The notes under the pieces were generated by a model that was not told the origin of the DNA, searched no databases, and saw only the letters and a list, made by a program, of their open reading frames with translations. Made by a program: the position numbers and the translations under genes. This document shows positions 7,312 through 29,027 of a stretch of DNA of 64,000 nucleotides, piece by piece; the first letter of the stretch is position 1; every line of letters starts with the position of its first letter. Source of the DNA: Planctomycetota bacterium (GTDB taxonomy: Bacteria; Planctomycetota; UBA1135; UBA2386); contig OZ245006.1 in NCBI GenBank assembly GCA_965223545.1, forward strand, positions 448,001 through 512,000, read 5' to 3'.

Positions 7312-7419
7312 GGTCGCGGTCGACGATACCGGTCCGCGGCGGCGGGGGGTCTCGCGCGGAGACAATTTCGCCGGCCGGCGCTGCAGGCGACGCCCGCGCG
7401 CTCCGATGAGGCGACGCAG

Positions 7420-9169: not shown

Positions 9170-9213
9170 GTGTTCTCGTTTTCGAATCGGGGAAGCGAAC
9201 GAGGCTCCGGATG

Positions 9214-9229
9214 AGCAACTCGCGGACCA
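9214..9229 (-). promoter_or_regulatory. Sigma54 (-24/-12) promoter upstream of the beta-helix gene
   Basis: Minus strand reads TGGTCCGCGAGTTGCT, i.e. GG-N10-GC with TTGC, 45 nt before the ATG at 9169 and next to a sigma54 activator gene. Confidence 0.7.
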
Positions 9230-9336
9230 ATCGCGCCGCGGGGCGCGGACGGCGGAAAACGGCGCCGATCGCGTGCGCCAAGCGCACGCGCCGCGCACGC
9301 ATCGCGGACGGCTCGGGGTTGTTCTCTCGCCGTCTC

Positions 9337-13140: not shown

Positions 13141-13272
13141 GCGTCGCATCCGTCCGCGCCGCCGGGCGCACCGCCTCGCCTTCGTGCACAATACGCACAG
13201 TGCGCGTTCGCGATGCGCACGTCCAGACCCTGCTCACGCCCGGTATCCACACGCCCCGGTGGCACCGGTGGC

Positions 13273-13288
13273 GGGCACGGCGCTTGTA
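13273..13288 (+). promoter_or_regulatory. Probable sigma54-type promoter (variant -12) upstream of the 13323 gene
   Basis: GGGCACGGCGCTTGTA: good -24 element GGCAC, but -12 is TTGT rather than TTGC. Nearly identical to the site at 61124. Confidence 0.45.
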
Positions 13289-13322
13289 GCGCAGCAGCCC
13301 GGAGATTCCCCCGCCGTTTACC

Positions 13323-14978
13323 ATGGCACCCTTGATGAGACCCCTCTGGCTCCTGCTTCTGATCCTCCTGCCGGCCGCGGCGGGTCGATCCCAGCCTTCG
13401 CACCTCACGTGGCTCGAAGGAACGCCCGGCAACACCGCCGTCTTCACCGTCGACGAAGCGCGGCCGGGGACCCCGGCAGCTGCATGGCTGGCTGGCGTCG
13501 CGGTGCTCGACATCGAGCTCAGCAACCGCACAACGCAGGCCAGCCTGCGGCGCGATCGCGCGCGCCGCGCCGTCGAGCTCGGCGTGCCGCGCCTGGAGTT
13601 GCCCGACAACGGCCGCGTGCTGCGCTACGCGCGCGCCGCCACCGGCGAGCACGGCTTCGTGTGGATCGGCGCCGACGGCCGCCCGCACTTGTTGTTGGCG
13701 CTGACGGCGGGCGACACCGGCGGCGACCCGTTTGCCGACCGCTGCGCCGTGAGCGCCGACGGCCGCCACCTGGTGATCACCGACGCCGCGGGCCGGGCGT
13801 TCGCCGCCGATCTACGCGGTGCGGACCCGGCGGTCTGGCGGCTGGGCTTGCCCGCGCCGGTCGAACCGCGCAGCGTCTGCGTCGGCGGCGACCGCGCCCT
13901 GCTGCAGACCACCGACCAGCGGCTGTGGCACATCCCCCTGATCGGCGACCGCGCGGCGATCGACATCACCCCGCAGCCGGGACCCGGCGCGCAGCTGGTC
14001 GCCGAGATGGCACCGGCGGCGAGCGGCCACGCCGTCGTCCTGCTGCAGGACACGGCCAGTACCGCGCTCTACCTGGCCGCGCCGGACGGCACCGTGCGCG
14101 CCCTGCCGGTGCCGGTCGCGCGCTACACCGCGCCGGGCTACCTGCCGGAGGTGACCGACGGACCGCGCATGCTGCTGAGCGACGACGGCAGCCGTCTGTT
14201 CTTCACGCAGGAGACCATGAGCGGTGAGCTGTTCCTGCTCGACACCACCGGCGCCACCGGCCTCGTGCACTTGACCGACGACTCCGTCTTCGAGCCCTAC
14301 ATCGGCACCGGCATCCACCCGTCGTTCGTCGGTGACCGGCTCGTCGCCGCCGTCGGCGATCCGGCGTTCGGCTTCGACTGGATGACCGCGCGCACCACCG
14401 CGCCGGTGCAGAACCTCACGCTGAGCGGGCTGCCGGGGACTCCCTGGTGGCCGGGCACCCTGCGGCCGACCGCGGGCTACTCCACCACTGCGGGCGGCGT
14501 ACTCGCCGCCGAGCCCGACCCCAATGGCGGCACCCTCCTGCGCGCGATCGACGCCACTGCCGGTACCCACGTCGTGGTGGCCCGCGATCTGCGCGGCGCG
14601 CCGGGCGCCGGGCGCGCCGCTGCCGCGCCAAACCTGATCATCCCCAGCCAGCGCGGCGACCGCTTCTTGAACGCCGCGCTGCAGCCGCTGCTGCAGAGCC
14701 CCGCCGGCATGCAGCTGTCCGCCGACGCGCAGCTCCCCGGCACGGTGGCGACCCTGTTCACCCTGCACTACGCCAGCGGCGGCGGCAACGTCATGCTGCG
14801 CTTGCCCAACGGAGCCATCGTGACCTTGCCGTTCGACCCCGCGTTGCGCGGTTTGGCGGTGACCCCGGCCGGCGGGGTGATCATCGACGGCAGCGAGCTG
14901 CGCTACATCAAGAACGGCGTGCAGTACCGGCTGGCGAGCGGCTCCGCGCCGCGGACTCCACTCTCACACCTGCACTGA
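13323..14978 (+). CDS. Secreted hypothetical protein, possibly beta-propeller
   Basis: Signal peptide (LWLLLLILLPAAAG); beta-rich composition with SADGRHL and SDDGSRL repeats. Confidence 0.75.
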   Translation: MAPLMRPLWLLLLILLPAAAGRSQPSHLTWLEGTPGNTAVFTVDEARPGTPAAAWLAGVAVLDIELSNRTTQASLRRDRARRAVELGVPRLELPDNGRVLRYARAATGEHGFVWIGADGRPHLLLALTAGDTGGDPFADRCAVSADGRHLVITDAAGRAFAADLRGADPAVWRLGLPAPVEPRSVCVGGDRALLQTTDQRLWHIPLIGDRAAIDITPQPGPGAQLVAEMAPAASGHAVVLLQDTASTALYLAAPDGTVRALPVPVARYTAPGYLPEVTDGPRMLLSDDGSRLFFTQETMSGELFLLDTTGATGLVHLTDDSVFEPYIGTGIHPSFVGDRLVAAVGDPAFGFDWMTARTTAPVQNLTLSGLPGTPWWPGTLRPTAGYSTTAGGVLAAEPDPNGGTLLRAIDATAGTHVVVARDLRGAPGAGRAAAAPNLIIPSQRGDRFLNAALQPLLQSPAGMQLSADAQLPGTVATLFTLHYASGGGNVMLRLPNGAIVTLPFDPALRGLAVTPAGGVIIDGSELRYIKNGVQYRLASGSAPRTPLSHLH

Positions 14979-14986
14979 TCGGCAGA

Positions 14987-15586
14987 ATGGTCAGGGACAC
15001 CACCGTGGCCGACAAGGCGGCCCTGCGGCGGGACGCGCGCGCGGCGCTCGAGCGGCTCACCGCCGAACAACGAGCGCTCGCATCCACGCACGCCTGCGCG
15101 ATGCTGGCATCGACGGGTGAGTTCGCCGCCGCCACCCGGCTGATGCTGTTTCTGTCGATGCCGCACGAGGTCGACACCGCCGCGCTGCTGCGCGTCGCTT
15201 GGGCCGCGGGCAAGGCGGTCGCCGTGCCCCGCATCACCGCCGACGGCCAGCTCGAGGCGCTGCCACTCACCGAGCAGACACGGCTGCGCGCGGGCCCGCT
15301 CGACATCCGCGAGCCGGTGTCGGGCGACGACCCGATCGACCCGGCCTCGATCGAGATGATCGTCGCACCGGGCCTCGCGTTCGACCGCGGCGGCGGCCGG
15401 CTCGGACACGGTGGCGGCTACTACGACCGCTTCTTGCCGCGCGCACCCGGGGCGTGGGTGTGCGGGCTCGGCTTCGACTGTCAGCTGTGGACGGTGGTGC
15501 CCATGGCCGCCCACGACCGGCGCATTCACGCGGTCGCCACGCCGTCCGGCCTGTACCGCGCCGCCCACGATCCAAGGCCGCGCTGA
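14987..15586 (+). CDS. 5-formyltetrahydrofolate cyclo-ligase
   Basis: DKAALRR start; EVDT; PGLAFDRGGGRLGHGGGYYDRFL; HD motif. Confidence 0.95.
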   Translation: MVRDTTVADKAALRRDARAALERLTAEQRALASTHACAMLASTGEFAAATRLMLFLSMPHEVDTAALLRVAWAAGKAVAVPRITADGQLEALPLTEQTRLRAGPLDIREPVSGDDPIDPASIEMIVAPGLAFDRGGGRLGHGGGYYDRFLPRAPGAWVCGLGFDCQLWTVVPMAAHDRRIHAVATPSGLYRAAHDPRPR

Positions 15587-15650
15587 TCGCGCGCCGCGGC
15601 CGCGCCCCCAGGCTCAAGCAGAGGCCGGGCGGACGCCGATCAGCAATGCC

Positions 15651-16082
15651 ATGGGACGAAACCGGCGCGTGGTTCCGCTGTGGTGCACAGCAACGCTGAT
15701 GGCCTTGGCGGCGTGCTCCGCCGAACCCGCGCGCAAGCCCACCCCCGATCTGCGGCCGCACGCCGCTCAGGTGGAGTTGGCACCGGGCAGCGCGCCGGCG
15801 GCCCCGGCCATGTTCTCGCGGCTGGAGATCGAGCGCACCACCGAGGAGCTGCGCGACCTGATCCGCGCCGGTGAGCTGGACCGCGCCCTGCAGCACTACC
15901 ACGCGGTCGAGCCGTGCACGCGCGTCGCGCGCGACAGCGACGCCTACCCCGCCCGCCTCGAGCTCGAGAACCTGTTCGTCCGCTGCGTGATGGCGCGCGA
16001 GTTTCTCGCGCTCAAGGTCGAGTACCCGGGCCAGCCGGGCACGCCGCCGCTGCCGCCGCAGTGGCCGGTGGCGCCCTGGTAG
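15651..16082 (+). CDS. Hypothetical lipoprotein
   Basis: ATG at 15651; lipobox LAA-C (LMALAACSAEP). Confidence 0.6.
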   Translation: MGRNRRVVPLWCTATLMALAACSAEPARKPTPDLRPHAAQVELAPGSAPAAPAMFSRLEIERTTEELRDLIRAGELDRALQHYHAVEPCTRVARDSDAYPARLELENLFVRCVMAREFLALKVEYPGQPGTPPLPPQWPVAPW

Positions 16083-16192
16083 GAGACACGGCACGGCGCG
16101 TCGGTCGGGAAAACAGCCAACGGCAGCGCAAGAACGACACCTCCACCAGCGTCCCAGCACCAAATCGTGTGGTACGTCCCTAGGAGGGCAAC

Positions 16193-16945
16193 ATGAACTC
16201 ACGCTCCATCTTCTTCGTCGCTCTCAGCGGCGCGCTCGTGTCGTTGTCTCCAGCGACCGCTCAGGACGCTGCGGCGGAATCCGCGGCGCCACTCTTCGAG
16301 ATCGCCGCCGGCGAACACGAGATCGCGGACCTGATCCGGCGCTCGGGCGAGTTTCTCGGCCGGCACTACGTTCTGCACGAGCAGGACATGAGCAACTCAC
16401 ACCAGACCACCGTGCGGATCGACCGGCCGATGCACCTCGACCCGGCGGGCTGCGAGCGCGTCGTCGGTTTGCTGGCCTACTCGATCGGCTTCGCCATGAT
16501 GCCGCTCGACCCGACGCACGACCTGTGGGAATGGGCCTCGATGAGCGGCCCCCGGCGCAGCGAGCTGACGCAGCGCGCGCTGCCGATGACGGTCGAGGAG
16601 GTCCGACACAGCAACAACCGCACCTTGGTCGTGCAGACCACGGTGACGCTGAAACACCTCGATGCCAACGCGGCCAGCAACACCTTGCGCCCGTTCTTCA
16701 TGACGCGTGGCGGGAGTGCCGCGCTCACGATCGGCGCCGCTGGCGGCAGTCTGTTGTTGTCCGGCTTCGTGCACCAGGTCGACCGCGCCTTGCAGGTGCT
16801 CGACGCCGCTGACGTACCCCGCAAGGCCCCGGTGGTCGCGGCGGAGGAGAACGAAGATTGCGCGACCCGACTGAAGCGCCTCGAGCAGCGGATCGCGAAG
16901 CTCGAGGCTGCTGCGAGCAAGGGGACGGCGACCGCCGCGCGCTGA
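16193..16945 (+). CDS. Secreted protein with secretin N-domain-like region and C-terminal coiled coil
   Basis: RBS GGAGG; signal peptide; VTLKHLDANAASNTLRP...SLLLSG...LD resembles Secretin_N; ends RLKRLEQRIAKLE. Confidence 0.65.
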   Translation: MNSRSIFFVALSGALVSLSPATAQDAAAESAAPLFEIAAGEHEIADLIRRSGEFLGRHYVLHEQDMSNSHQTTVRIDRPMHLDPAGCERVVGLLAYSIGFAMMPLDPTHDLWEWASMSGPRRSELTQRALPMTVEEVRHSNNRTLVVQTTVTLKHLDANAASNTLRPFFMTRGGSAALTIGAAGGSLLLSGFVHQVDRALQVLDAADVPRKAPVVAAEENEDCATRLKRLEQRIAKLEAAASKGTATAAR

Positions 16946-16977
16946 AAGAGCGGGGCGAGCTCGGCGGGCGAGAGCCG

Positions 16978-18441
16978 TCAGCGACTGCCCAGCATGCGGC
17001 AGTAGAGCGCCTCGTACTCGAGAACCTGCCGCTGCCACGACCAATCGACGGCCATCGCGCGCTGCACCAGCGCAGCCCATGCCGCCCGGTCGTGGTACAG
17101 CTCGAGCGCGCGCACGAGCACATCGAACAGCGCCTGGGCGCGGAACTCGTCGAACAGAAACCCGGTGCCGGTGCCGGCGCGCGGATCGCAATCCTCGACC
17201 GTGTCCGCCAGACCGCCGGTGCGGCGCACCACCGGGATGGTGCCGTACTTCAAGCTGTACATCTGGTTGAGCCCGCACGGTTCGTAGCGCGAGGGCATCA
17301 GGAAGAGATCCGCCGCCGCTTCGATGCGGTGCGCCAGCTCGTTGCTGTAGCCACGGTAGTAGCCGACGGCATCCGGATAGAGGTCGCGCAGGTCCTGGAA
17401 CAGCTGCTCGTACTTGGGCTCGCCCGTGCCCAACGCCAGCAGCCGGCAGGCACCGCGCTGGAGCACCACCGGCAACACCTCGGCGGCCAGCTCGAACCCC
17501 TTCTGGTAGGTCAGCCGGGACACCACGCCCACCAGCGGCCGATCGTCGTCGTGCGGCAGGGAGAACTCGGCCAGCAGGGCCGCCTTGTTGGCGGCCTTGC
17601 CGCTGAGATCGCCGGCGGAGTAGCGGTGCGGTAGAAGGCGGTCGGTGGCCGGATCCCAGTCCTCGTAGTCGCAGCCGTTGACGATGCCGGTCAGCACCTC
17701 GCGGCGCGCGCGCAGCGACGCCTCGAGTCCCATGCCGAACTCGGCCGTCAGCAGCTCGCTGGCGTAGGTCCGGCTGACGGTCGACACCGCGTCGGCGTAA
17801 CGGATGCCGTTGCGCAGCGGGTTGAGCACGCCCGCTTCGAGGTCGTCCGCATCGAGCAGGTGCCGCTCCCCGTCGAGTCCCAACGCGGGGAGAGCATCGA
17901 CGCCGACGGTGCCCTGGTAGCCGATGTTGTGGATGGTGAGCAGGGTGCGGCTGGTGTCGAACAGGCGATCCCAGGCGTAGCGCGTCCGCAGGTAGAAGGG
18001 CAGCAGCGCCGTGTGCCAGTCGTTGCAGTGGAACACGTCCGCGGCAAAGCCCAGCCGCTGGCACAACTCGATCGCGGCACAGGAGAGGGCCGCGAAGCGC
18101 AGCGTCTCTTCGCCGCCGGCGGTGTAGATCTCGTCTCCGCCGAACAGCTCGGGAAGGTGCACGAACACCACCCGCACCGCGCTGCCCGGCAAGTCGGTGG
18201 CAAAGGCGGAGAACTCCCAAGTCCGTTCCCCCAGCGAGAACGACACTGCCTGGGCCTCGGCCACGGGGTCGAACCGATAGCCGCCGTCGCGCACCCGGCC
18301 GTACATCGGCATCACCACCAGCACGTCGTGCCCGCGCGCATGCAGAGCCGCCGACAGGCCCTTGCCGACGTCGGCCAGCCCCCCGGTCTTGGCGAACGGC
18401 GCCACCTCGCTCGCCACCAGACAGATGCGCAGCTTGGTCAT
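16978..18441 (-). CDS. glgA: Glycogen synthase (GT5)
   Basis: SEVAPFAKTGGLADV, HCNDWHTA, TIHNIGYQG, SRLTYQKG, PSRYEPCGLNQ, TGGLADTV. Confidence 0.97.
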   Translation of the reverse strand: MTKLRICLVASEVAPFAKTGGLADVGKGLSAALHARGHDVLVVMPMYGRVRDGGYRFDPVAEAQAVSFSLGERTWEFSAFATDLPGSAVRVVFVHLPELFGGDEIYTAGGEETLRFAALSCAAIELCQRLGFAADVFHCNDWHTALLPFYLRTRYAWDRLFDTSRTLLTIHNIGYQGTVGVDALPALGLDGERHLLDADDLEAGVLNPLRNGIRYADAVSTVSRTYASELLTAEFGMGLEASLRARREVLTGIVNGCDYEDWDPATDRLLPHRYSAGDLSGKAANKAALLAEFSLPHDDDRPLVGVVSRLTYQKGFELAAEVLPVVLQRGACRLLALGTGEPKYEQLFQDLRDLYPDAVGYYRGYSNELAHRIEAAADLFLMPSRYEPCGLNQMYSLKYGTIPVVRRTGGLADTVEDCDPRAGTGTGFLFDEFRAQALFDVLVRALELYHDRAAWAALVQRAMAVDWSWQRQVLEYEALYCRMLGSR

Positions 18442-18599
18442 TGGGCCTAGAAGCTACCGCGACCCGCGGCGAAAGCCCGGCAAACCCCCGCCCCGCGGTG
18501 TTGCCGCGCGCCCCTTCGCGCCGGCTACGTCTTGCCAACCCTCGCACCCGGGGTACGGTGGCGCTCAGCCCCTCGTCCGCTCGCCGCCCTCGACCCCAC

Positions 18600-19829
18600 A
18601 TGCGACACGCCGTCTTCGTGGTCCCGTTCGCCCTGGACGCCACCCTGCGCTTCGTGCGCGCCGCGGCGACCCTGGACGGCGTCCGCGTCGGACTCGTCAC
18701 CCAGCAGTCGATCGGCCAATTGCCCGAGGACGTGCTGCGCCACGTCGGCGCGGTGCACCAAGTCGGCGACGCCCTGGATGCGGATGCGCTCACCGCCGCC
18801 GTGCGCGAGCTCGCGCCGCGGCTCGAACACCGCGTCGACGCTCTGATCGGTATCCTCGAGCCGCTGCAGGAGTCCCTGGCGGCGGTGCGCGAGCGCCTCG
18901 GCATCCCCGGCATGGGCGTCGACGTGGCGCGCAACTTTCGCGACAAGGCGCGGATGAAGAGCGTGCTGCGCCACCACGAGCTGCCGTGCGCCCGCCACCA
19001 CCTGGCGACCAGCGCCCGCGACGCCCTCGACTTCGCCAAGGGCTGCGGCTACCCGCTGGTGTGCAAGCCGCCGGCCGGTGCCGGCGCCAAGAACACGTTC
19101 CGCGTCGAATCAGACGAGCAGCTCGACGCCGCGCTGCGGGGCATGCCGCCGACCGCGGCCAAGCCAATGCTGCTCGAAGAGTTCATCCGCGGCCGCGAGT
19201 TCTCCTTCGACAGCATCACCATCGACGGCCGCCACTGCTTCCACTCGATCTCCACCTACCACCCGACACCGCTCGAGGTGATGGAGAATCCGTGGATCCA
19301 GTGGTGCGTGCTGCTGCCGCGGCACATCGACGGCGACGAGTTCGCGCCGATCCGCGCCGCCGGCCCGAAGGCGCTCGACGCGCTCGGGCTGCACACCGGC
19401 ATGACCCACATGGAGTGGTTCGAGCGCCCCGACGGCAGCATCGCCATCTCCGAGGTCGCCGCCCGCCCACCGGGCGCGCAGTTCACCAGCCTGATCAGCC
19501 ACGCGCACGGGCACGACTTCTACCGCGCCTGGGCCGAGCTGATGTGCACCGGACACTTCACGCCGCCGGAGCGGCGCTTCGCCGTCGGCGCCGCGTTCCT
19601 GCGCGGGCAGGGCAACGGCCGGGTGATCGACGTGCACGGCCTCGAGGAAGCCAAGAAGAAGCTCGACGGACTCGTGGTCGAAGCGCGCCTGCCGCAGCGC
19701 GGGCAGGCCCGGGCCAGCAGCTACGAGGGCGAGGGCTACGTCATCCTCCGCCACCCGGAGACCGAGGTCGTCGCCGCCGGACTCGACACGGTCGTCAACA
19801 CCTTGCGCGTCGAGCTCGGTCAGCTGTGA
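18600..19829 (+). CDS. ATP-grasp domain protein
   Basis: ATG at 18600; RDKARMK, GYPLVCKP, EEFIRG, THMEWF, EVAARPPG. Confidence 0.92.
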   Translation: MRHAVFVVPFALDATLRFVRAAATLDGVRVGLVTQQSIGQLPEDVLRHVGAVHQVGDALDADALTAAVRELAPRLEHRVDALIGILEPLQESLAAVRERLGIPGMGVDVARNFRDKARMKSVLRHHELPCARHHLATSARDALDFAKGCGYPLVCKPPAGAGAKNTFRVESDEQLDAALRGMPPTAAKPMLLEEFIRGREFSFDSITIDGRHCFHSISTYHPTPLEVMENPWIQWCVLLPRHIDGDEFAPIRAAGPKALDALGLHTGMTHMEWFERPDGSIAISEVAARPPGAQFTSLISHAHGHDFYRAWAELMCTGHFTPPERRFAVGAAFLRGQGNGRVIDVHGLEEAKKKLDGLVVEARLPQRGQARASSYEGEGYVILRHPETEVVAAGLDTVVNTLRVELGQL

Positions 19830-19866
19830 GCGCCACCGAAAGTCCCGTCGCCTCCCCACCACCGCC

Positions 19867-21084
19867 ATGCACGTCGTTCTGATCTCCCCCGGGTTTCCCG
19901 CCGAGATGCCGCTGTTCACCCGCGGCCTCGCCGCCGTCGGCGCCCGCGTGTTGGGGGTCGGCGACCAACCCGCCGCGGCGCTCCCCGAGGTCGCGCGGCA
20001 CGCGCTCACCGGCTACCTCCAGGTCAAGAGCTTGTGGGAGGAGGAGGCGGCGATCGCCGAGATCCATCGCTGGCTGCGCGGCCGCGAGGTCGACCGCGTC
20101 GAGTGCCTGTGGGAGCCCGGCATGTATCTCGCAGCCCGACTGCGGGAGAGCATCGGCGTGCCCGGCATGAGCGTCGAGCAGACGGTGCCGTTCCGCGACA
20201 AGGAGGTGATGAAGCAGCGCCTCGACGCGGCCGGTGTCCGCACCCCGAAACACGCCCGCGCTGCCACCGAGGCCGAGGTGCGGGAGGCAGCCGAACGGAT
20301 CGGCTTCCCGCTCATCGTCAAGCCGATCGATGGCGCCGGTTCGAAGGACACCTACCTGCTGCACGAGGCCGCCGACATCGAGCAGGTCTTGGACTTGGTA
20401 CGGCACGTCCCCGAGGTGTCGGTCGAGGAGTACATCGACGGCGAGGAGTACACCTACGACACCGTCTGCGGCGACGGCGAGATCCTGTTCGAGAACCTGT
20501 CGTGGTACCGGCCGAAGCCGATGTTCATGGCCAAGTACGGCTGGGTCAGCCCGCAGTCGATCATCTACCGCGACCTGCAACACGAAGCCGTCGCGCCGGG
20601 CCGCGCGCTCGGCCGCGACGTGCTCCGCGCTCTCGACTTCCACAGCGGCTTCACCCATATGGAGTGGTTCAAGACGCCGGCCGGCGAGCCGGTGTTCGGC
20701 GAGATCGCCGCGCGGCCTCCGGGGGCGCGCCTGGTGCACGCGATGAACTACTCCTGCGACGTCGATCTGTTTGCCGGTTGGGCAGAGGCGGTGTGCAGCG
20801 CGCGCTTCTCGCAGAGCCGAGAGCGGCCGTACAACGCCGGCATGGTGTTCAAGCGCGCGCAGGGACAGGGTCGCATCCGCCATATCGACGGGCTGGAGCG
20901 GCTGCTGGCGCGCTTTGGCGAGCACATCTGCAACATCGATCTGCCGCGCATCGGCGCTGCGGTCGTCGACTACCGCAAGGTCGTCGTCGGCGACGGCTGG
21001 CTGGTGGCGCGACACCACGACCTCGAAAAGACCATCGAAATGGCCGACGCGATCGGCGCCGAGCTGACTCTCCATGCAGGCTGA
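19867..21084 (+). CDS. ATP-grasp domain protein
   Basis: RDKEVMK, GFPLIVKP, EEYIDG, THMEWF, EIAARPPG. Confidence 0.92.
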   Translation: MHVVLISPGFPAEMPLFTRGLAAVGARVLGVGDQPAAALPEVARHALTGYLQVKSLWEEEAAIAEIHRWLRGREVDRVECLWEPGMYLAARLRESIGVPGMSVEQTVPFRDKEVMKQRLDAAGVRTPKHARAATEAEVREAAERIGFPLIVKPIDGAGSKDTYLLHEAADIEQVLDLVRHVPEVSVEEYIDGEEYTYDTVCGDGEILFENLSWYRPKPMFMAKYGWVSPQSIIYRDLQHEAVAPGRALGRDVLRALDFHSGFTHMEWFKTPAGEPVFGEIAARPPGARLVHAMNYSCDVDLFAGWAEAVCSARFSQSRERPYNAGMVFKRAQGQGRIRHIDGLERLLARFGEHICNIDLPRIGAAVVDYRKVVVGDGWLVARHHDLEKTIEMADAIGAELTLHAG

Positions 21085-22018
21085 CACTTCCGTACCGGTC
21101 GCCCTCTTGGGCCCCCAGCGCCACGCGCCCGACCTGCGCGATGCGATCGACGCGGCCGGCATCAGTGGCAAGCTCGCGGTGGTGACCGCCGGCTGGGAAG
21201 AGCGCGAAGACGAGGACCTCGAGCTGGGTCAACATCTGGGCGGTCGCGCCGTCAACCTCGGCGTATTCGCCCGCGCCGAACGCATCTACGAGCGCGACCA
21301 CGAGCTGCGCGACGCGGTCATCGCGCGCCACGAGCAGCTCGACGCGCTGCAGCGCTTGTATCGGCTGCGCCTGGCGCACGCGCTGTCGGCGGCGCGCGAG
21401 CTGCTCGCGCTGCCGGGCGACGACGCGGCGCTCGAGGCCGAGCGCGACGACGCGATCGCCGCGGTTCGCCAGCTGGACCAGCGCCACGGCGCGCGCGTGG
21501 CCGAGGTGCACGACGAGTTCGAGCAGCGCCTGCGCACCGCCGAGCGGGACCACGTGATCGCCGCCCGCGCCGAGATCGCCGAGCGAATGGCCGGCACCGA
21601 AGCGCTGTGCATCGCCGGCGGTCACGTCGGGGTGCTGCACAACCGGATGCGACTGCTGGACGTCACCGGCCTCGCCGGCCACCGCCCGGTGTTCGCCTGG
21701 TCGGCGGGGGCGATGCTGCTCACCGAGCACATCGTGCTGTTCCACGACAGCCCGCCGCAGGGCGCCGGAGACGCCGAGGTGCTCACCGCGGGCTTCGGCA
21801 CGGCTCCCGGTGTCGTCGTCCTGCCACACGCACGCCACCGGCTGCGCGTCGAGGACCGCACCCGCGTCGCGTTGATGGCACGCCGGTTCGCGCCCGCCCT
21901 GTGCGTCGCGTTCGACGGCGGCGCGCGCCTGCAGCGCAGCGGCGATGGATGGCGGGCATCCACGGGAACCCGCCGACTGTGCGCCGACGGCACCCTGACC
22001 GAGGTCGAGGCCGCGTGA
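21074..22018 (+). CDS. Class I glutamine-amidotransferase-like Ser hydrolase (peptidase E/cyanophycinase, S51-like)
   Basis: CIAGGHVG, nucleophile elbow AWSAGAM, VLPH; overlaps the upstream stop. Confidence 0.75.
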   Translation: MQADTSVPVALLGPQRHAPDLRDAIDAAGISGKLAVVTAGWEEREDEDLELGQHLGGRAVNLGVFARAERIYERDHELRDAVIARHEQLDALQRLYRLRLAHALSAARELLALPGDDAALEAERDDAIAAVRQLDQRHGARVAEVHDEFEQRLRTAERDHVIAARAEIAERMAGTEALCIAGGHVGVLHNRMRLLDVTGLAGHRPVFAWSAGAMLLTEHIVLFHDSPPQGAGDAEVLTAGFGTAPGVVVLPHARHRLRVEDRTRVALMARRFAPALCVAFDGGARLQRSGDGWRASTGTRRLCADGTLTEVEAA

Positions 22019-23151
22019 TGCTGGCGATCCACGCCCTGGAGCAGAACGGCAGCGCCTCCCGCGAAGCCGTCGACGCGTTTCTCGCCGATCACCAGTTCCC
22101 GCTGGTCGAGGGCCGCCAGGCGACCTTCGTCTACCGCGGCGAAGCAGACGCGGTCTACCTGCAGCACTGGATCTACGGCTTGCCGCAGGAGCAGCCGTTC
22201 CAACGGCTGGCGGGCTCCGACCTCTGGTTCCACGTCATGGAGCTGCCCGAGCGCTCTCGCGTGGAGTACAAGCTGCGGGTCGAACGCGGGCCCCACCGCC
22301 AGCTGGTGCAGGACGCCCTCAATCCGCACCACGCCCGCGATCCGTACGGCGCCAACTCGGTGGTGCACGGCGCCGGCTACGAGATCCCGGACTGGGTCGA
22401 GCCGGCCGGCGATGTCCGCGAGGGCACGATCGAGCAGCGCCGCTTGATGAGCCGCGCGCTGGGCGAGGCCAGGCCGGTATCGGTCTACTTGCCGGCCCGC
22501 TTCCGGCAGACGCGGCACTACCCGCTGTTGGTAGTGCACGACGGCGACGACTTCCTGCGCTTCACCGGGTTGAAGACCGTGCTCGACAACCTGATCCATC
22601 GGCTGGAGATCCCGCCGATGGTGGTCGCCCTCACCCAATCCTCCAACCGACTGCACGAGTACGCGGCCGACGACCGGCATGCGGCGTTCTTGGTCGAGGA
22701 CCTGGTGCCGACGCTCGAAGAGCACTACCCGCTGCAGGCCCATCCCGCCGGGCGCGGGCTGCTCGGCGCCAGTTTCGGCGCGGTGGCTTCGCTGCACGCG
22801 GCGTGGCGCCACCAGGGCTTCTTCGGCAACCTGTTGCTGCAATCCGGCTCGTTCGCGTTCACCGACATCGGCGAGCACGACCGCGGCCCTGTGTTCGATC
22901 CGGTCGTCCGCTGGGTCAACGAGTTTCGCGAGAGCCCCGGCCGGCCCGCCGACCAGGCCTACCTGAGCTGCGGCACCTACGAGTCGCTGATCTACTACAA
23001 CCGCTCGCTGCTCCCCGTGCTGCAGGACACCGGAATGAACGTGCGCTACAACGAGTCGCGCGACGGGCACAACTGGGAGAACTGGCGCGATCGACTGCGA
23101 GAGGGGCTCTCGTGGTTGTTCCCCGGACCGCTTTGGATGGTCTACGAGTAG
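22018..23151 (+). CDS. Esterase (Fes/enterochelin-esterase-like alpha/beta hydrolase) with N-terminal CBM48/E-set-like domain
   Basis: TGATG coupling; N-terminal TFVYRG...EYKL...DALNP; GASFG nucleophile motif; GHNWENW. Confidence 0.85.
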   Translation: MLAIHALEQNGSASREAVDAFLADHQFPLVEGRQATFVYRGEADAVYLQHWIYGLPQEQPFQRLAGSDLWFHVMELPERSRVEYKLRVERGPHRQLVQDALNPHHARDPYGANSVVHGAGYEIPDWVEPAGDVREGTIEQRRLMSRALGEARPVSVYLPARFRQTRHYPLLVVHDGDDFLRFTGLKTVLDNLIHRLEIPPMVVALTQSSNRLHEYAADDRHAAFLVEDLVPTLEEHYPLQAHPAGRGLLGASFGAVASLHAAWRHQGFFGNLLLQSGSFAFTDIGEHDRGPVFDPVVRWVNEFRESPGRPADQAYLSCGTYESLIYYNRSLLPVLQDTGMNVRYNESRDGHNWENWRDRLREGLSWLFPGPLWMVYE

Positions 23152-23163
23152 AGGAGTCGCATC

Positions 23164-24402
23164 GTGGCCACCGTCACCCGCAGGATCGGACTGTCGCTGG
23201 GGGCCGACATCTGTTGGCCCATCTGCTACGAGGACATCGTCTCGGAGCTCGACCTGTCGCTGCCGATCGGCGGCGACACCGTGCGCTTCGAGGTCGAGCG
23301 CGTGCACATCGAGCCGTTCAGCTTGAGCGCACCGGCGCGCTACGACGTGGTTCTCGACCGCCTCACGCACTGGTACCACACCAGCCGCGAGTGGATCAAG
23401 AAGGCGGTGATCATGGACGACGTCTACGTCCTCAACAATCCGTGGTCGGTGCAGTCGATGGAGAAGCAAACCAGCTACTGCGCGATGATGCGGCTGGGCT
23501 TGCCGATCCCCGCCACTTGGCTGGTGCCGCCCAAGGAGTACGACGAGCGCCCCGACCTCAAGGCGACGCTGGACAGCTACGCGGTGCTGTTCGATCTCGA
23601 CCGGATCGGCGAGTCCGTCGGCTACCCGCTGTTCATGAAGCCCTACGACGGCGGCGGCTGGGTCGGCGTCAACAAGATCGATGACGCCGAAGAGCTGGCC
23701 CAACGCTACGACGAGAGCGGCAAGTTCGTCATGCACTTGCAGGCGGGAGTCGTGCCGTTCGAGCGCTTCGTCCGCTGCATCGGTCTGGGGCCTCAGGTCA
23801 AGATCGTCGACTACGACCCCTCCGCCGCGCTGCACGAGCGCTATCGAGCCGAGCTCGACCCGGTCGACGGCGAGGACCGCGCCGTGTTGGAGGACATGGT
23901 GCTGACCATCAACGCGTTCTTCGGCTGGGACTTCAACTCGTGCGAGTCCCTGCTGCGCGATGGCGTCTGGCATCCGATCGACTTCGCCAACCCGTGCCCG
24001 GACAGCCAGGTCAACTCGCTGCACATTCACTTCCCCTGGGTGGTCCTCGCCAACATCCGCTGGTCGCTGTTCTGCGCGGCCACCAAGCGGCCCATGCGGC
24101 AGAACCTGGACTGGCAGCCGTTCTACGACATCGCCGCCAAGGGGCTGCCCTATCGCGAGGCGTTGGCGGAGTACGCGGCGGTCGCGCGCCAGCGCTTCGA
24201 CGCCGATCGGTTCGCCGAGTTCTGCGCCGAGCACCTCTCCGACCTCGACCGCGTGGCGCACCAGTACTTCGGCGACGACCGCGCGCGCCAAGCGGTGGCG
24301 AAGAAGGTCGCCGCGGTGTTCCCCGAGCACGAGTGGGACGAGTACACCGAGCGCTTCTGGCAGTCGATCCAGCAGTGGCGGCGCACCGTCGCCGATTCCT
24401 GA
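23164..24402 (+). CDS. ATP-grasp ligase (RimK/glutathione-synthetase-like, a different subfamily from the other three)
   Basis: RBS GAGGAG; VLNNP, GYPLFMKPYDGGGW, IDFANPCPD. Confidence 0.88.
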   Translation: MATVTRRIGLSLGADICWPICYEDIVSELDLSLPIGGDTVRFEVERVHIEPFSLSAPARYDVVLDRLTHWYHTSREWIKKAVIMDDVYVLNNPWSVQSMEKQTSYCAMMRLGLPIPATWLVPPKEYDERPDLKATLDSYAVLFDLDRIGESVGYPLFMKPYDGGGWVGVNKIDDAEELAQRYDESGKFVMHLQAGVVPFERFVRCIGLGPQVKIVDYDPSAALHERYRAELDPVDGEDRAVLEDMVLTINAFFGWDFNSCESLLRDGVWHPIDFANPCPDSQVNSLHIHFPWVVLANIRWSLFCAATKRPMRQNLDWQPFYDIAAKGLPYREALAEYAAVARQRFDADRFAEFCAEHLSDLDRVAHQYFGDDRARQAVAKKVAAVFPEHEWDEYTERFWQSIQQWRRTVADS

Positions 24403-24427
24403 CCACGATCCCCGCACGCTTCACCCA

Positions 24428-25195
24428 ATGTCCAAGCAGTCCTCCACCTGGCACTCACCGCGCCTCAACCGCGAAATCCAGCTGGTGCGCTGGGGTGAGG
24501 TCGGCACGCCGGTGCTGATCTTCCCCACCGCCGGTGGAGATGCCGAGGAATGCGAGCGCATGCACATGATCGACGCGCTCGGCGACCTGCTCGCCGAGGG
24601 TCTGATCAAGGCCTACTCGGTGGACAGCATCGCCGGCCGCTCGTGGCTCGACGAAGACAACTCGACCGCTGGCGGGGCGCGCATGCAGGAGCGCTTCGAT
24701 GCGTGCATCTATCACGAGGTCCTGCCCGCGATTCGCCTGGACTGCAACGCCGACGACATCGAGGTCATCGCCACCGGAGCCTCGATCGGCGCCTACAACG
24801 CGCTGGCTGGGGCGACGCGGCATCCGGACGTGTTTCGCGGCGCGATCTGCATGAGCGGCACCTACACGCTGCAGAAGTTTCTCGACGGCCCGCTCACCGA
24901 CGCACTGCACGCGGTCTCGCCGCTGCACTTCGTGCCGGAGCTCGCCGAGGACAGCGATCAGCTGGCGCTGCTGCGCCAGCGGTGGTTCACCCTCGCGCAC
25001 GGCGAGGGGCGCTACGAGGAGCCGGCGCAGTCCTGGGCCGTCGCCAACGCGCTGGGCAACCGCGGCATCCCCAATCGCGTCGAGCCCTGGGGCGAAGACT
25101 GGCACCACGACTGGGTCACCTGGCGCGCCATGCTGCCGACCTTCCTCCGCGAGTTCCCCCTGTCGGCGGACACGCCGGACGCGAACGAGTCGTAG
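24428..25195 (+). CDS. Esterase family alpha/beta hydrolase
   Basis: ATG at 24428; WHSPRL...WGEVGTPVLIFPT; GASIG; MSGTY; HHDW. Confidence 0.88.
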   Translation: MSKQSSTWHSPRLNREIQLVRWGEVGTPVLIFPTAGGDAEECERMHMIDALGDLLAEGLIKAYSVDSIAGRSWLDEDNSTAGGARMQERFDACIYHEVLPAIRLDCNADDIEVIATGASIGAYNALAGATRHPDVFRGAICMSGTYTLQKFLDGPLTDALHAVSPLHFVPELAEDSDQLALLRQRWFTLAHGEGRYEEPAQSWAVANALGNRGIPNRVEPWGEDWHHDWVTWRAMLPTFLREFPLSADTPDANES

Positions 25196-25226
25196 CGACG
25201 CGCCGGCGGCGCGCTATGCTGCCGCG

Positions 25227-25574
25227 ATGGCCGCCAAGATCTCCTGGTACTACCACCGCAAGGGTTGAACGAGCTGCGGCCGCGCCGACGATTACCTCGC
25301 CGAGCGCGGCATCACCACCGGGACGGTGGTGAACGCAGCCAAAGAGCACATCTCGCCCGATGAGGCCGTCGAGCTCGTCCGCGAGCACCGCAAGCTCATC
25401 GTCGCCAAGGGCAAGAAGGTCCTGCACTTCGACGTCGCCGCCGAGGAAGAGGACACCGCCATCCTCAAGGCGATCATCGGCCCCTCGGGCCGCCTGCGCG
25501 CGCCGACGTTCAAGCGCGGCAAGACGCTCGTCGTCGGCTTCCACGCCGACGCCTACGACGAAGTTCTCGGCTGA
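25227..25574 (+). CDS. ArsC/Spx-like thioredoxin-fold selenoprotein (UxxC), 115 aa
   Basis: ATG at 25227 gives MAAKISWYYHRKG-TGA(25266-25268)-TSC, in frame with the ORF-track fragment ending LRAPTFKRGKTLVVGF. Confidence 0.88.
25279..25310 (+). promoter_or_regulatory. Putative bacterial SECIS hairpin of the ArsC-like gene
   Basis: GCCGCGC (starting 10 nt after the UGA) pairs with GCGCGGC, enclosing CGA...TCG and a short loop. Confidence 0.55.
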
Positions 25575-25658
25575 TCGGGCGGCACGTCCCCTCGACGATT
25601 ACTCACGCCAAAGCCGCGCTGGGTGCCAAGAACATCGTGGAGCTGAACGCCATTGCGC

Positions 25659-27311
25659 TCAGGGGTCGACCACTTGCACTTTGGCGTGGGTCACCTTGAA
25701 TCCAAGCCGGCGCAACGCACGGCAAGTCTTGCGCAAGTTTACCTTGCTGAAGAACGGCATGTCTCGGACTTGCCTTGCCCCCCACTCAGCAACGATCGCG
25801 AATACGACTTCGAAGTCGTTTGCGGCGAGATCATCGGAAAACAGGGCTCGGAACGCGGCGTTGGAGCTGCCAATCTTCTTTCTGACCGCCTTGCGGAACT
25901 CCAGGGAATCGACCATCAACTCCGAAGACACGTAGCCTTGAGAGAACAGGTGACTCAAGGATGAGGACGAGAGCTTGCGCTTGACGTGCACGAGAGCGCC
26001 TTGCACCGACAAGACATCGCAGATCTCGACGGGACTGGTCTTCCCGGGGATCGTCACGGTTTCCTTGTCGAGCAGCAGGTAGTCATCGCTCGAGTCAGCT
26101 GCCTGCGTGTTGTAGGCCCCCTCGTCAATCTCTTTGAGCTTCCCGTTCTTCATGACCCGCGCCGAATCGGGAAGAGCTACGCCCGAAGCAGCGATGCCGT
26201 CCATGAACTTGTCAAGAGCTTCGAGGTAGTCAGGCTCGATCACGAAGAACTCACCTCCCTCGAGAAGGTAGGTTTCTCCGTCGTGCTCGATCTCACCGTC
26301 TAGCACCTGTTGCAGTGACCAACTACCGACAACGTCGCCACTATCGTCACGACCCTGAATCTCGCCACGTGCAAGAATGTCTCGCGTGAGTTCGAGCCCC
26401 TCGTCGGCCAGTGCACTGAGGATCTCATCGATCGTGGGCTCTGAAGTCGCGAAGGACTCGACTCCAGGCAGCTGCACGCGGTAATCGGTGACCCTGTCGA
26501 AGTCGATCAGTCCTGGCGGTGCGAACCGCCACTGCCCCGGGTTGCCCTCGATGTCCTGCAGGATTCCGTCCGTAAGAGCATCCACCTGCGACGAACTAGT
26601 GATCGGTCGTATGTCATCGACGAACCCGAAGCGACGCTGATAGTCCTTCTTCTCGTGTGCGCTCGCGAGCAGTCGACACAGCTTGCCAACCTCGACAAAC
26701 GTCGAGCGGCGCATGATTCGGAGACTGCCGCCACCCTTGATCTGGCTCCCAAGAGCACTCTCGTCCGCCAGCTTCCCCACAATCGAACTCAACTGATCCG
26801 CCTCGGTGTCGTGACCAAAGGCGTCGAAGTCGGCACCGCGGTTGGCCTGTCGAAGCGTGCGAAAAGTGTTCGCCGCCACAGTCCGAGTCTCCACTTGCCG
26901 AACTCGGTCATTGGAGTCAGCGTCCGCGTAGATGCTGTTCAAGGCAGTTCGCAGAGCCCAACTCGAGTCCGTTGCTCCTCGCCGCAGTTGGAATCGGCCA
27001 GCTCCGAACGTCATCACGAAGAAGCGCTCCTTGCGGAAGAAGACGTTGATCGCGACCAAGGCTCGACTCTGAGCCGTATCTGGCACCGTCAGGTTGTCGC
27101 CGAAGCCATCCTGCAGGAACGCAAGCCACGACGGCGGACGTGCTACACCCGGCCAGAGATAGAGACGCGCTGACCAGTCCCTGCCGTCTTCATCGACTCC
27201 CTCGAAATCCACCATGTTTGCCGTGAGGATCTTCGTGGGATCAACGAGATCGTCAAAAGCCGCCACAGAGTCATTTGCCGCGTAAAGAGTAATCGCGCTG
27301 ATGTCGGACAT
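25659..27311 (-). CDS. TIGR04141/DUF6119-like sporadically distributed protein, lower GC
   Basis: 550 aa; PPSWLAFL, TFGAGR, EGAYN, VEICDVLS...LVHVKR...LSHLFSQG, PFFSKVNL; composition visibly less GC-rich than its neighbours; RBS GGAG. Confidence 0.8.
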   Translation of the reverse strand: MSDISAITLYAANDSVAAFDDLVDPTKILTANMVDFEGVDEDGRDWSARLYLWPGVARPPSWLAFLQDGFGDNLTVPDTAQSRALVAINVFFRKERFFVMTFGAGRFQLRRGATDSSWALRTALNSIYADADSNDRVRQVETRTVAANTFRTLRQANRGADFDAFGHDTEADQLSSIVGKLADESALGSQIKGGGSLRIMRRSTFVEVGKLCRLLASAHEKKDYQRRFGFVDDIRPITSSSQVDALTDGILQDIEGNPGQWRFAPPGLIDFDRVTDYRVQLPGVESFATSEPTIDEILSALADEGLELTRDILARGEIQGRDDSGDVVGSWSLQQVLDGEIEHDGETYLLEGGEFFVIEPDYLEALDKFMDGIAASGVALPDSARVMKNGKLKEIDEGAYNTQAADSSDDYLLLDKETVTIPGKTSPVEICDVLSVQGALVHVKRKLSSSSLSHLFSQGYVSSELMVDSLEFRKAVRKKIGSSNAAFRALFSDDLAANDFEVVFAIVAEWGARQVRDMPFFSKVNLRKTCRALRRLGFKVTHAKVQVVDP

Positions 27312-27357: not shown

Positions 27358-28236
27358 TCATTTCGCGCCAAACAGCTCGAACGGCGCATCGCCCCCGGCG
27401 AACAGCAAGTCGGCGGCAGCGGCGACGTCCCGGGCAGTGTAGCCCGGGCGCACCGCGAGCTCCTCGCCGAGGACCAGACGCACCTCGGCGATCCGACCAC
27501 CACCGACCAGCAGCGCGCGACCCGTGCGCCCGGCCGAGAGGTCGCTGACCATGTAGACCAGGGCCGGCGACACCATCTCGGGAGCGAAGCGGCGGCGCAC
27601 GGCGGCGTCCTGCATCGGCGGCAAGTCCTCGCTCATCCGCGTCGTCGCCAGCGGCACCAGCGCCCACGCGCGGATGTCGTGCTTGGCGCCTTCCAACGCC
27701 AGACTCTTGACGAGCCCGTACAGGCCGGCCTTGGCCGCCCCGTACGCGGTCTGGCCGAAGTTGCCGAACAGGCCGGAGGTCGAGCTGGTGTGCACGATCA
27801 CCGCGCCACAGCCGCGCGCGCGCGCGTGCCGGACGAACGGTCCGCTGACGTTGAAGCCCCCCTCGAGATGGACCGCGAGCACTGCATTCCGGTCGGCCTC
27901 GTCGAGCTTGTGCAAAGTCCGATCGCGCAGGATGCCCGCGTTGTGCACGAGGATGTCCGCGGCACCGAACGCGGCCACGGCGGCGCCGACGATCGCCTCG
28001 CCGCCGTCCACCGAGGCGACCGAGTCACTGTTGGCGACCGCGCGACCGCCGCGCGCCTCGATCGCGGCGACCACCGCCCGCGCCGGCCCATCGTCGCGGC
28101 CGCGGCCGCTGCGATCACCGCCGACGTCGTTGACCACCACCGCAGCCCCCTCGCCGGCCAGCGCCAGTGCATGCGCGCGCCCCAGACCCCCGCCGGCCCC
28201 GGTGACCACCGCGACCTTGCCGTCGAGCAGACCCAT
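27358..28236 (-). CDS. Short-chain dehydrogenase/reductase (MFE-2/HSD4-like)
   Basis: TGAGGGLG, VVVND, HNAGILRD, GNFGQTAYGAAK. Confidence 0.93.
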   Translation of the reverse strand: MGLLDGKVAVVTGAGGGLGRAHALALAGEGAAVVVNDVGGDRSGRGRDDGPARAVVAAIEARGGRAVANSDSVASVDGGEAIVGAAVAAFGAADILVHNAGILRDRTLHKLDEADRNAVLAVHLEGGFNVSGPFVRHARARGCGAVIVHTSSTSGLFGNFGQTAYGAAKAGLYGLVKSLALEGAKHDIRAWALVPLATTRMSEDLPPMQDAAVRRRFAPEMVSPALVYMVSDLSAGRTGRALLVGGGRIAEVRLVLGEELAVRPGYTARDVAAAADLLFAGGDAPFELFGAK

Positions 28237-28283: not shown

Positions 28284-28973
28284 TTGCCATTGCACGTTCC
28301 CCAAGCTCCCGACCTGTCGATTTCGCCGTTCGGCGCCGACGTGGTCTACTGCGTGCGCACCGCGGCGCAACCCCTTGACTACGAGCTGCACCCGGCCGAA
28401 GCCGAGCTGCTCACGCCGCGCGCCGTCGACAAACGGCGCCTCGAGTTTCGCCTCGGCCGCGCCGCGGCGCACCACGCGCTGCGTGCCCTGCTGGGCACCA
28501 CGCCGGGGCCGGTGGGTCGCGGCGCGTCGCGCGAGCCGCTCTGGCCGCCCGACACGGTGGGTGCGATCACGCACACCGCCGACACCGCCGCCGCCGCGGT
28601 CGCGCATGAGCGCCACCACGCCGGCATCGGCCTCGATCTCGAGGAGCGCAGCCGTCACCTCGGCGACGAGCTCGTGCCGCACATCTGCACCGAATCCGAA
28701 ACGCGCTGGGTCGGCACCGACGACGATGCCGCGCTGCGGCTGATGCTCCTGTTCTCGGCGAAGGAATCGGTGTTCAAGCTGTTCTACCCCAGAGAACAGG
28801 TCTTCCTGGGGTTTCACGACGCCGAGCTGCGCTGGCGCGACGACGCGCAGGCGTTCGACGCCCGCCTGCGCACCGCCGCGGGCGCCGCCTACCCCGCGGG
28901 CACCACCGTCAGGGTCGGCTGCCGCGTCAACGACGCGCACGTCATGACCTGGGCGGCCCTGCCGGGCAAGTGA
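28284..28973 (+). CDS. 4'-phosphopantetheinyl transferase (EntD/Sfp-type)
   Basis: RRLEFRLGR, PLWP...GAITH, GLDLE, FSAKESVFK. Confidence 0.92.
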   Translation: MPLHVPQAPDLSISPFGADVVYCVRTAAQPLDYELHPAEAELLTPRAVDKRRLEFRLGRAAAHHALRALLGTTPGPVGRGASREPLWPPDTVGAITHTADTAAAAVAHERHHAGIGLDLEERSRHLGDELVPHICTESETRWVGTDDDAALRLMLLFSAKESVFKLFYPREQVFLGFHDAELRWRDDAQAFDARLRTAAGAAYPAGTTVRVGCRVNDAHVMTWAALPGK

Positions 28974-29027
28974 TCACCCGGCGGCTGCGGGTCCTCGCGC
29001 GGCGAAACCGTATGCTGCGCGCCTGCG

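Follow-up and report, generated by a model that had tools for sequence, protein, structure and literature searches.

Bacterial glycogen is a textbook carbon reserve, and its metabolism, comprising GlgC, GlgA, GlgB, GlgP and GlgX together with the GlgE route, is thought to be fully mapped. Here we analyse a 64,000-nucleotide stretch of the genome of a Planctomycetota bacterium (GenBank assembly GCA_965223545.1, contig OZ245006.1, forward-strand positions 448,001 to 512,000; hereafter the window), in which a glycogen synthase gene, glgA, is wired to genes for four ATP-dependent ligases of the ATP-grasp type (graspA, graspB, graspC and graspD) and three serine hydrolases (an S51-like protein and the esterases est1 and est2) that have no prior assignment. 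The linkage of this module to glycogen genes is not due to chance. As an explanation we tentatively favour, with less than even confidence, a reversible, ester-linked decoration of glycogen or alpha-glucan with amino acids or peptides by the enzymes of the module.

Several described systems share features with the module. The cyanophycin system (CphA1/CphA2 and CphB), the product of which has a poly-Asp backbone bearing Arg side chains, likewise pairs ATP-grasp synthesis with an S51-fold serine hydrolase, and the module, too, would be of a reserve type and operate without a non-ribosomal peptide synthetase or a ribosomal template. However, the module ligases have neither the architecture of CphA, a single large synthetase with N, ATP-grasp G and Mur-ligase-like M domains, nor a Mur-ligase domain at all, and the module contains four separate ligases, two esterases and a glycogen synthase; furthermore, its S51-like protein is predicted to carry a helical hairpin region of ~110 residues, which neither CphB nor PepE has. 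L-amino acid ligases (BacD/YwfE, RizA, BL00235), which typically make di- and oligopeptides, resemble graspA, and through paralogy also graspB and graspD, along most of the sequence, and graspA shares with them the ATPgrasp_N and ATP-grasp domains. The similarity is distant, however, and the three ligase groups of the module travel with a glycogen synthase and not with antibiotic clusters. Both Fes and the CBM48-CE1 feruloyl esterases consist, like est1, of an N-terminal beta-sandwich and a PF00756 alpha/beta hydrolase domain, but est1 differs from both in its invariant C-terminal ...VYE tail, from Fes in scoring below the enterochelin esterase cut-off and having no siderophore genes nearby, and from the CBM48-CE1 enzymes in belonging to a family without a CBM_48 sequence match. 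Finally, as in the RimK and LysX systems, an ATP-grasp gene (graspC) stands beside a gene whose product (est1) ends in a conserved and, in the structure model, unpacked C-terminal Glu. Unlike in those systems, the ligase shows no specific sequence kinship to either RimK or LysX, and the candidate partner is an enzyme of 377 aa where those systems have a small carrier or a ribosomal protein.

A full-text literature search, the reach of which did not extend to the ATP-grasp amidoligase survey of Iyer et al. (2009), returned no paper on this gene set and none combining 'glycogen synthase', 'ATP-grasp' and 'esterase'. Similarly, no curated family or solved relative assigned a product to the module. 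An initial annotation of the locus had stated that no assigned product was known and had left room for a match to a characterised pathway; in the family, structure and literature searches made here, no such product and no such pathway came to light. By exclusion, as no described system matched it in these searches, we judge the module to be a new kind of system, the mechanism of which we infer below.

The core of the locus was originally described as glgA divergent from six tightly packed genes, and all seven are present. The glgA gene (16978-18441, minus strand) encodes an ADP-glucose-type glycogen synthase (TIGR02095, 520.3 bits against a cut-off of 328.45; Glyco_transf_5 at 3.4e-67 and Glycos_transf_1 at 1.6e-15). 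It is the only TIGR02095 match above the cut-off genome-wide, with the next best at 57.7 bits, and glgC of this genome lies 6.6 Mb from the module. Divergent from glgA, six co-directional plus-strand genes follow one another at distances of 37, -11, -1, 12 and 25 bases. These are graspA (18600-19829) and graspB (19867-21084), encoding L-amino-acid-ligase-like ATP-grasp enzymes of 409 and 405 aa; the gene for the S51-like protein (21074-22018, 314 aa); est1 (22018-23151), encoding a Fes-like serine esterase of 377 aa; graspC (23164-24402), encoding a 412-aa ATP-grasp ligase without a functional name; and est2 (24428-25195), encoding a short PF00756 serine esterase of 255 aa without an N-terminal domain. 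Inspection letter by letter confirmed two overlaps between neighbouring genes, one of 11 bases (21074-21084) and one in the form of a TGATG (22016-22020). The window has a G+C content of 71%, and long spurious open reading frames (ORFs) are common in it; we judged the seven genes to be coding because the G+C content of their third codon positions (GC3) is 0.90-0.94 as compared to 0.41-0.50 at second positions (GC2). Since homologues align from residues 1-3, the start of graspA was set at MRHAV (18600) and not at 18441, where the listed ORF begins. The ligases and serine hydrolases named in the initial annotation are real.

The 158-bp intergenic region between glgA and graspA (18442-18599, assigned to neither strand) is presumed, from its position, to be a shared control region. 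No sigma-70-like site was found in it, a promoter and terminator scan of positions 16000-26000 gave nothing above shuffled expectation, and there was no Rfam match anywhere in the window, this region included.

A pattern scan over one genome per species (185,579 species) gave 455 stretches with relatives of the 314-aa S51-like protein; by this one marker protein, the gene set occurs in 455 species genomes, that is, in hundreds of species from several phyla. The best 80 of these 455 loci are mostly from Planctomycetota, and also from Acidobacteriota (Thermoanaerobaculia), Myxococcota and Eisenbacteria. Genes were counted as present when tblastn matches reached at least 44% identity and at least 50% coverage. 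The est1 gene follows the S51-like gene in 73 of the 75 loci with at least 1.3 kb of downstream sequence. Of the 48 loci with at least 7 kb available downstream, 43 contain graspC, 33 contain est2 and 18 contain a gene of the glgC type. On the other side, graspB follows graspA in relatives, and glgA is divergent from graspA at a distance of no more than 1 kb in 31 of the 37 loci that contain graspA and have at least 1.7 kb of upstream sequence; in one further locus the distance is 1.2 kb.

Clustering the ORFs of at least 100 aa that flank the 80 loci revealed that the conserved set is larger than initially annotated. Three ATP-grasp ligases had been recognised, and graspA, graspB and graspC all stand; the size of the set does not, as a fourth ligase belongs to it. 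This is graspD (6094-7311, minus strand), which lies outside the interval first considered and encodes a 406-aa protein with Pfam ATP-grasp and CPSase_L_D2 matches (65% identity to graspD of locus L004, E 4e-183). In relatives graspD is directly downstream of glgA, and 26 of the 31 loci that hold both genes have them on the same strand less than 400 bp apart. Also found repeatedly in the neighbourhood are glgC (19 loci), a debranching enzyme of the GDE type (8), GH57 (5) and a GCS2-CBS carboxylate-amine ligase (4). A polyphosphate kinase of the PPK2 family (PF03976, 6e-68 in L079) is found in nine relatives, located between est1 and graspC in eight (L017, L025, L027, L033, L037, L038, L039 and L079) and nearby in L064; it is not at that position in the window. 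PPK2 might supply the ligases with regenerated ATP, or its presence could be the sign of an island for reserve polymers.

In the window, graspD and glgA are 9.7 kb apart (7312-16977), whereas the pair is adjacent in most relatives. The interval contains a gene (9337-13233, minus strand) for a protein of 1,298 aa in which protein kinase, TPR, GAF and sigma-54 activator domains are fused. It also has several ORFs without a family match, one of which, for a protein of 250 aa (16193-16945), gave a weak Secretin_N hit. The interval looks like an insertion into an ancestral glgA-graspD operon.

The module consists of two conserved blocks, graspD-glgA/graspA-graspB and S51-est1-graspC-est2, and rearranged genomes indicate that they move as units. 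In L052 and L072 the glgA-graspA-graspB group is on the opposite side of S51-est1-graspC. In five genomes without graspA within 10 kb of the S51 locus, a graspA orthologue was found elsewhere in all five. Four of these five preserve the order graspD-glgA/graspA-graspB, twice with an extra graspB-like copy, while in the fifth graspA is divergent from graspD with no glgA in between. The extra copy, a fifth ATP-grasp gene at 50-56% identity, is located in the glgA block (L098, G003:C16; L100, G005:C22); the graspA match of genome G005 contains one in-frame TGA. The linkage to glgA, glgC, the debranching enzyme and GH57 is strong and survives rearrangement. The initial annotation had proposed the neighbourhoods of homologous operons as a check, and these operons are linked to glg genes; a lack of enrichment is clearly not what we observed.

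We also assessed the association in an independent sample of 201 genomes drawn evenly across the phylum, each at least 90% complete, using cut-offs of E ≤ 1e-160 for graspC orthologues and E ≤ 1e-60 for GlgA and cross-tabulating the results by hand. Besides the genome studied here, 31 of the 201 have a graspC orthologue (55-69% identity). A GlgA match is present in 28 of these 31, versus 109 of the 169 other genomes. In 17 of the 31, GlgA is encoded on the same contig no more than 15 kb from graspC, and these GlgA copies are 46-56% identical to that of the window; copies not linked to graspC are mostly 35-47% identical, a comparison that is confounded by phylogeny.

Turning to the individual enzymes, graspA matches PF02222 (36.3 bits, cut-off 27) and comes just under the cut-off for ATPgrasp_N (PF18130, 26.9 bits, cut-off 27). 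Among solved chains it resembles the L-amino acid ligases 4wd3 (1.1e-14) and 3vot (5.5e-14) as well as BacD (7.5e-8), and L-amino acid ligases are the best solved matches of graspB, too. GraspB has matches to ATP-grasp families in both Pfam and NCBIfam. A quick tree of 68 sequences (22-23 per group, drawn at random from 130) divides graspA, graspB and graspD into three groups with branch support of 99-100 and several phyla in each; the three are therefore old, distinct paralogues. Such ligases might build a soluble small molecule stepwise, for example a tri- or tetrapeptide or a depsipeptide serving as compatible solute, thiol or signal, which the hydrolases would recycle and which would be tied to carbon status. 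The similarity of graspA to L-amino acid ligases speaks for this possibility, three anciently separated ligase groups fit successive, distinct ligation steps, and the GCS2-CBS carboxylate-amine ligase in four related loci, together with a GCS2 gene in one distant locus, is consistent with it, as is the absence of a conserved exporter among the recurrent neighbours of the 80 loci. We nevertheless consider a soluble product unlikely, as it leaves unexplained both the co-transcription with glycogen synthase and the glgB, glgC and GH57 contexts, and three hydrolases are many for the turnover of a small solute. The module could also be a ribosomal-peptide (microviridin-like) system, the short precursor gene of which may have escaped a clustering that took in only ORFs of at least 100 aa.

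The initial annotation had called the 314-aa protein an S51-like serine hydrolase. The protein itself has no Pfam, NCBIfam or PDB-sequence match at E ≤ 0.01, with PF03575 not reached, and in this respect the call was not borne out; its fold and its homologues do support it. At least 4,812 homologues were found at E ≤ 0.001, and among the 120 homologues listed some carry a precomputed PF03575 assignment and the name 'Type 1 glutamine amidotransferase-like'. A structure model built from 20 sequences (pLDDT 90.5) was searched against the PDB with Foldseek, and among the matches listed, through rank 20, the top 14 are all S51 members, including pseudo-CphB (7uqv, 1.4e-6), the acI-B1 peptidase (6nqc), cyanophycinase (3en0 and 7uqw) and PepE (1fy2 and 6a4r), at identities of 11-14%. 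Ser210 (AWSAGAM) is conserved in 90% or more of these sequences, with Ala in one, and aligns with the nucleophile position of class-I amidotransferases in a weak profile match; His252 (LPHA), 42 residues past Ser210, is invariant. An acidic third residue could not be picked out in the S51-like protein. In the model, two helices of ~37 residues each form a hairpin inserted within residues 64-172, and this insertion accounts for a length beyond that of the matched S51 chains (194-266 residues). Taken together, PF03575 in part of the homologues and the fold search indicate that the protein is S51-like, and the model places it with the cyanophycinase-type S51-fold hydrolases that have a serine nucleophile and a histidine.

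This resemblance bears on the main rival explanation, namely that the module produces a separate, amino-acid-based reserve similar to cyanophycin, in which the four ligases would polymerise amino acids in trans and the S51-like enzyme would depolymerise the product; its genes would lie among those for glycogen and polyphosphate solely because carbon, nitrogen and phosphorus reserves share their regulation. Three ligases resembling L-amino acid ligases and a hydrolase with the cyanophycinase/peptidase E fold and a conserved Ser at the nucleophile position speak for this explanation, and PPK2 inside the operon in nine relatives, along with the nearby glgC and debranching genes, resembles a reserve island. 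Moreover, cyanophycin synthetase (TIGR02068, cut-off 850 bits) was not found genome-wide, the best match being one of 112 bits to its Mur-ligase part at another locus, so that the niche of such a reserve is free; the same model gives 34.7 bits with graspA and 39.3 bits with graspB over about 90 residues. In the absence of CphA from the genome, we ruled out that the module is an accessory to a cyanophycin system. A canonical S51 peptidase is encoded at another locus of the genome. On balance we regard a separate reserve as somewhat unlikely: a product that is purely a polyamide would leave the two conserved carboxyl-esterases without a function, co-transcription of glgA and graspD and the relocation of glgA with the ligases are tighter than co-regulation requires, and distant graspC-like ligases with an est2-like esterase occur in glycogen loci that lack L-amino-acid-ligase-like genes. 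If the product were nevertheless a separate compound, it would be a new reserve or metabolite made by a template-free, multi-ligase route.

Of the two esterases, est1 is the longer. Its catalytic domain matches PF00756 at 7.9e-22, and its N-terminal beta-sandwich domain matches Enterochelin_N in 29 of 38 family members (best 1.3e-7), est1 of the window itself scoring 22 bits against a cut-off of 27.1. CBM_48 (PF02922), by contrast with the label 'CBM48-like' given to this domain in the initial annotation, is matched by none of the 38 members at E ≤ 0.01. The structure model of est1 (pLDDT 92.3) over its full length matches Fes (2b20, 3c8h and 3mga) with TM scores of 0.71-0.75 (E about 1e-23), as compared to 0.59 (E 1e-25) for CBM48-CE1 feruloyl esterases. 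The fused architecture was therefore fairly described, while the CBM48 sequence label was not; and since there is no CBM_48 signature and Fes is globally closest, binding of est1 to glucan is not indicated. Ser252 (GASFG) and His351 are invariant. The shorter est2 matches PF00756 at 4.4e-9, and its G-x-S119-x-G motif (GASIG) and His227-Asp228 are invariant in 21 sequences. We rejected a role of est1 as a siderophore esterase, as neither the scanned genes of the window nor the recurrent neighbours of the 80 loci include any for siderophore synthesis or uptake and est1 is below the Fes cut-off (99.7 bits with the enterochelin esterase model NF007758, cut-off 222). Phosphorylation of glucan by an ATP-grasp kinase was likewise rejected, by reasoning alone: the paired hydrolases are carboxyl-esterases and not phosphatases.

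The remaining ligase, graspC, is the best conserved protein of the set, with a mean column identity of 70%. In Pfam it has a weak Dala_Dala_lig_C match and nothing else, and a profile built from 30 members of its family aligns with D-Ala-D-Ala ligase between residues 111 and 229 (6e-6). More than 5,000 homologues at 63-73% identity are distributed across phyla. Every source names them 'hypothetical' or plain 'ATP-grasp domain', with no functional name, and in the protein atlas the closest large cluster, the 8,601 members of which come most often from Actinomycetota, is likewise nameless. Comparison with the RimK and LysX models (TIGR00768, TIGR02144 and PF08443) gave no RimK match, and LysX_arch scored 16.3 bits against a cut-off of 275.6.

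The conserved C-terminal Glu of est1, encoded next to graspC, suggests one more possibility, which is compatible with the other explanations: graspC might act on the C-terminal Tyr-Glu of est1, either by RimK-like addition of residues or by using the Glu as a LysX/LysW-like carrier, which would switch the esterase or attach a substrate to it. In the first 80 loci, est1 ends in ...GPLWMVYE-stop wherever there is a full match, whereas the C-termini of the other seven module proteins vary. The last five residues are the sole stretch of the est1 model with pLDDT below 50, and the tail thus appears to be conserved but not packed. In addition, graspC begins 12 bases past est1 here, and its own conservation is in line with such a partnership. 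However, the tail is hydrophobic (WMVYE), unlike known ligase-targeted tails, graspC has no match of useful score to the RimK or LysX families, distant graspC-like ligases are accompanied by est2-like esterases in loci that have no est1, and in one relative, L104 (G101:C77), est1 (4823-5944) ends in ...RVYP and not in ...VYE. We therefore regard chemistry on this tail as quite improbable. L104 is one of three genomes (with L102 and L103) of a variant lineage, in which the gene order is S51-est1-est2-graspC and graspC is 39-43% identical.

Beyond this lineage, we inspected the surroundings of six graspC-like genes that are more distant still (about 29-37% identity). The first is located between a glgB/est2-like pair and glgC. 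Another, in L110 (G179:C135), encodes a short graspC-like ligase and is divergent from a gene (7891-9798) for a GlgA with a fused C-terminal DUF4912, after which comes a gene for a GH57 branching enzyme; 3 kb off there is one for a GCS2 carboxylate-amine ligase. A third has an est2-like gene nearby, a fourth has a gene for a more divergent PF00756 esterase, and the last two are beside S9 peptidases. These loci argue that the association among graspC-type ligases, est2-type esterases and glycogen genes is deeper than the eight-gene set, and graspC is the ligase of the module with the furthest-reaching link to glycogen genes.

In the decoration of glycogen that we favour, graspC would convert a carboxylate to an acyl-phosphate and transfer it to a glucan hydroxyl, and graspA, graspB and graspD would add or extend residues via amide bonds. 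Removal would fall to the hydrolases, with the S51-like enzyme shortening the peptide portion and est1 and est2 hydrolysing the ester to free the glucan. Coupling to glucan synthesis would come from the promoter region between the divergent glgA and graspA genes and from the glgA-graspD operon. Both products named in the initial annotation, a cyanophycin-like store and a glucan with acyl or aminoacyl groups, are candidates. That the product contains an ester bond is suggested by the presence of two PF00756 esterases with conserved Ser and His residues, and ATP-grasp enzymes are able to form esters, as exemplified by the VanA D-Ala-D-lactate ligase and the microviridin ligases. We prefer decoration because no other reading gives each enzyme class a role, because both gene blocks independently track glycogen genes, and because the partner hydrolases are carboxyl-esterases of a polysaccharide-deacylating fold. 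Possible, though doubtful, is the proposal that a 'peptido-glycogen' exists in Planctomycetota, Acidobacteriota, Myxococcota and other phyla as a combined carbon-nitrogen reserve, a glycogen loaded by the ATP-grasp ligases with ester-linked amino acids or short peptides that are stripped by the esterases and the S51 peptidase, with the Tyr-Glu tail of est1 perhaps serving as the handle of graspC to the glucan or as the carrier of the first residue.

A number of observations weigh against decoration. Three L-amino-acid-ligase-like enzymes and a hydrolase with a predicted peptidase fold would point to amide and not ester bonds, the est1 family lacks CBM_48, and we know of no precedent for an aminoacylated glycogen; every substrate assignment for the module is one that we infer. 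Co-regulation of two reserves would explain the linkage to glycogen genes, too. The linkage itself has exceptions: no glgA is within reach in five of the 37 graspA loci (L016, L028, L045, L069 and L073), three of the 31 graspC genomes of the independent sample have no GlgA match at 1e-60, four genomes of one family have graspC and a GlgA of just 41-43% identity on other contigs, and no glycogen gene was found by tblastn in the stretch checked around four of the six distant graspC-like genes. Furthermore, the carrier genomes are related and not independent, and the locus counts consequently overstate the number of separate events.

If decoration is the correct explanation, it would mean that a major biopolymer is covalently modified in a new manner and that carbon and nitrogen storage are coupled in a new way. 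Either way, a testable context is gained for graspC and for the S51 family with the hairpin, two very large families that both exceed 4,800 matches at the thresholds used, and the module is small enough for heterologous expression.

The region downstream of the module contains several further genes. A short-chain dehydrogenase (27358-28236, minus strand), a 4'-phosphopantetheinyl transferase (28284-28973) and an S58 (DmpA-type) aminopeptidase (28974-30164) are not conserved with the module among the 80 loci. Directly after est2, a 115-codon ORF (25227-25574, plus strand; GC3 0.92) reads MAAKISWYYHRKG-TGA-TSCGRADDYLAERGI..., where the in-frame TGA takes the place of the first Cys in a CxxC-like motif (UxxC). 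The ORF has a weak ArsC-family match that is below the cut-off (E 0.0065, 17 bits), a hairpin of -30.4 kcal/mol (z -2.1) begins 13 nt past the UGA, and selB is present in the genome (318 bits, cut-off 242). We consider it a candidate selenoprotein gene; it is not kept beside the module in relatives. Finally, the gene at 25659-27311 (minus strand) belongs to the DUF6119/TIGR04141 'sporadically distributed' family. Its GC3 is just 0.70 and its surroundings have a G+C content of 63%, as compared to about 71% elsewhere, and it is probably a recent acquisition beside the module.

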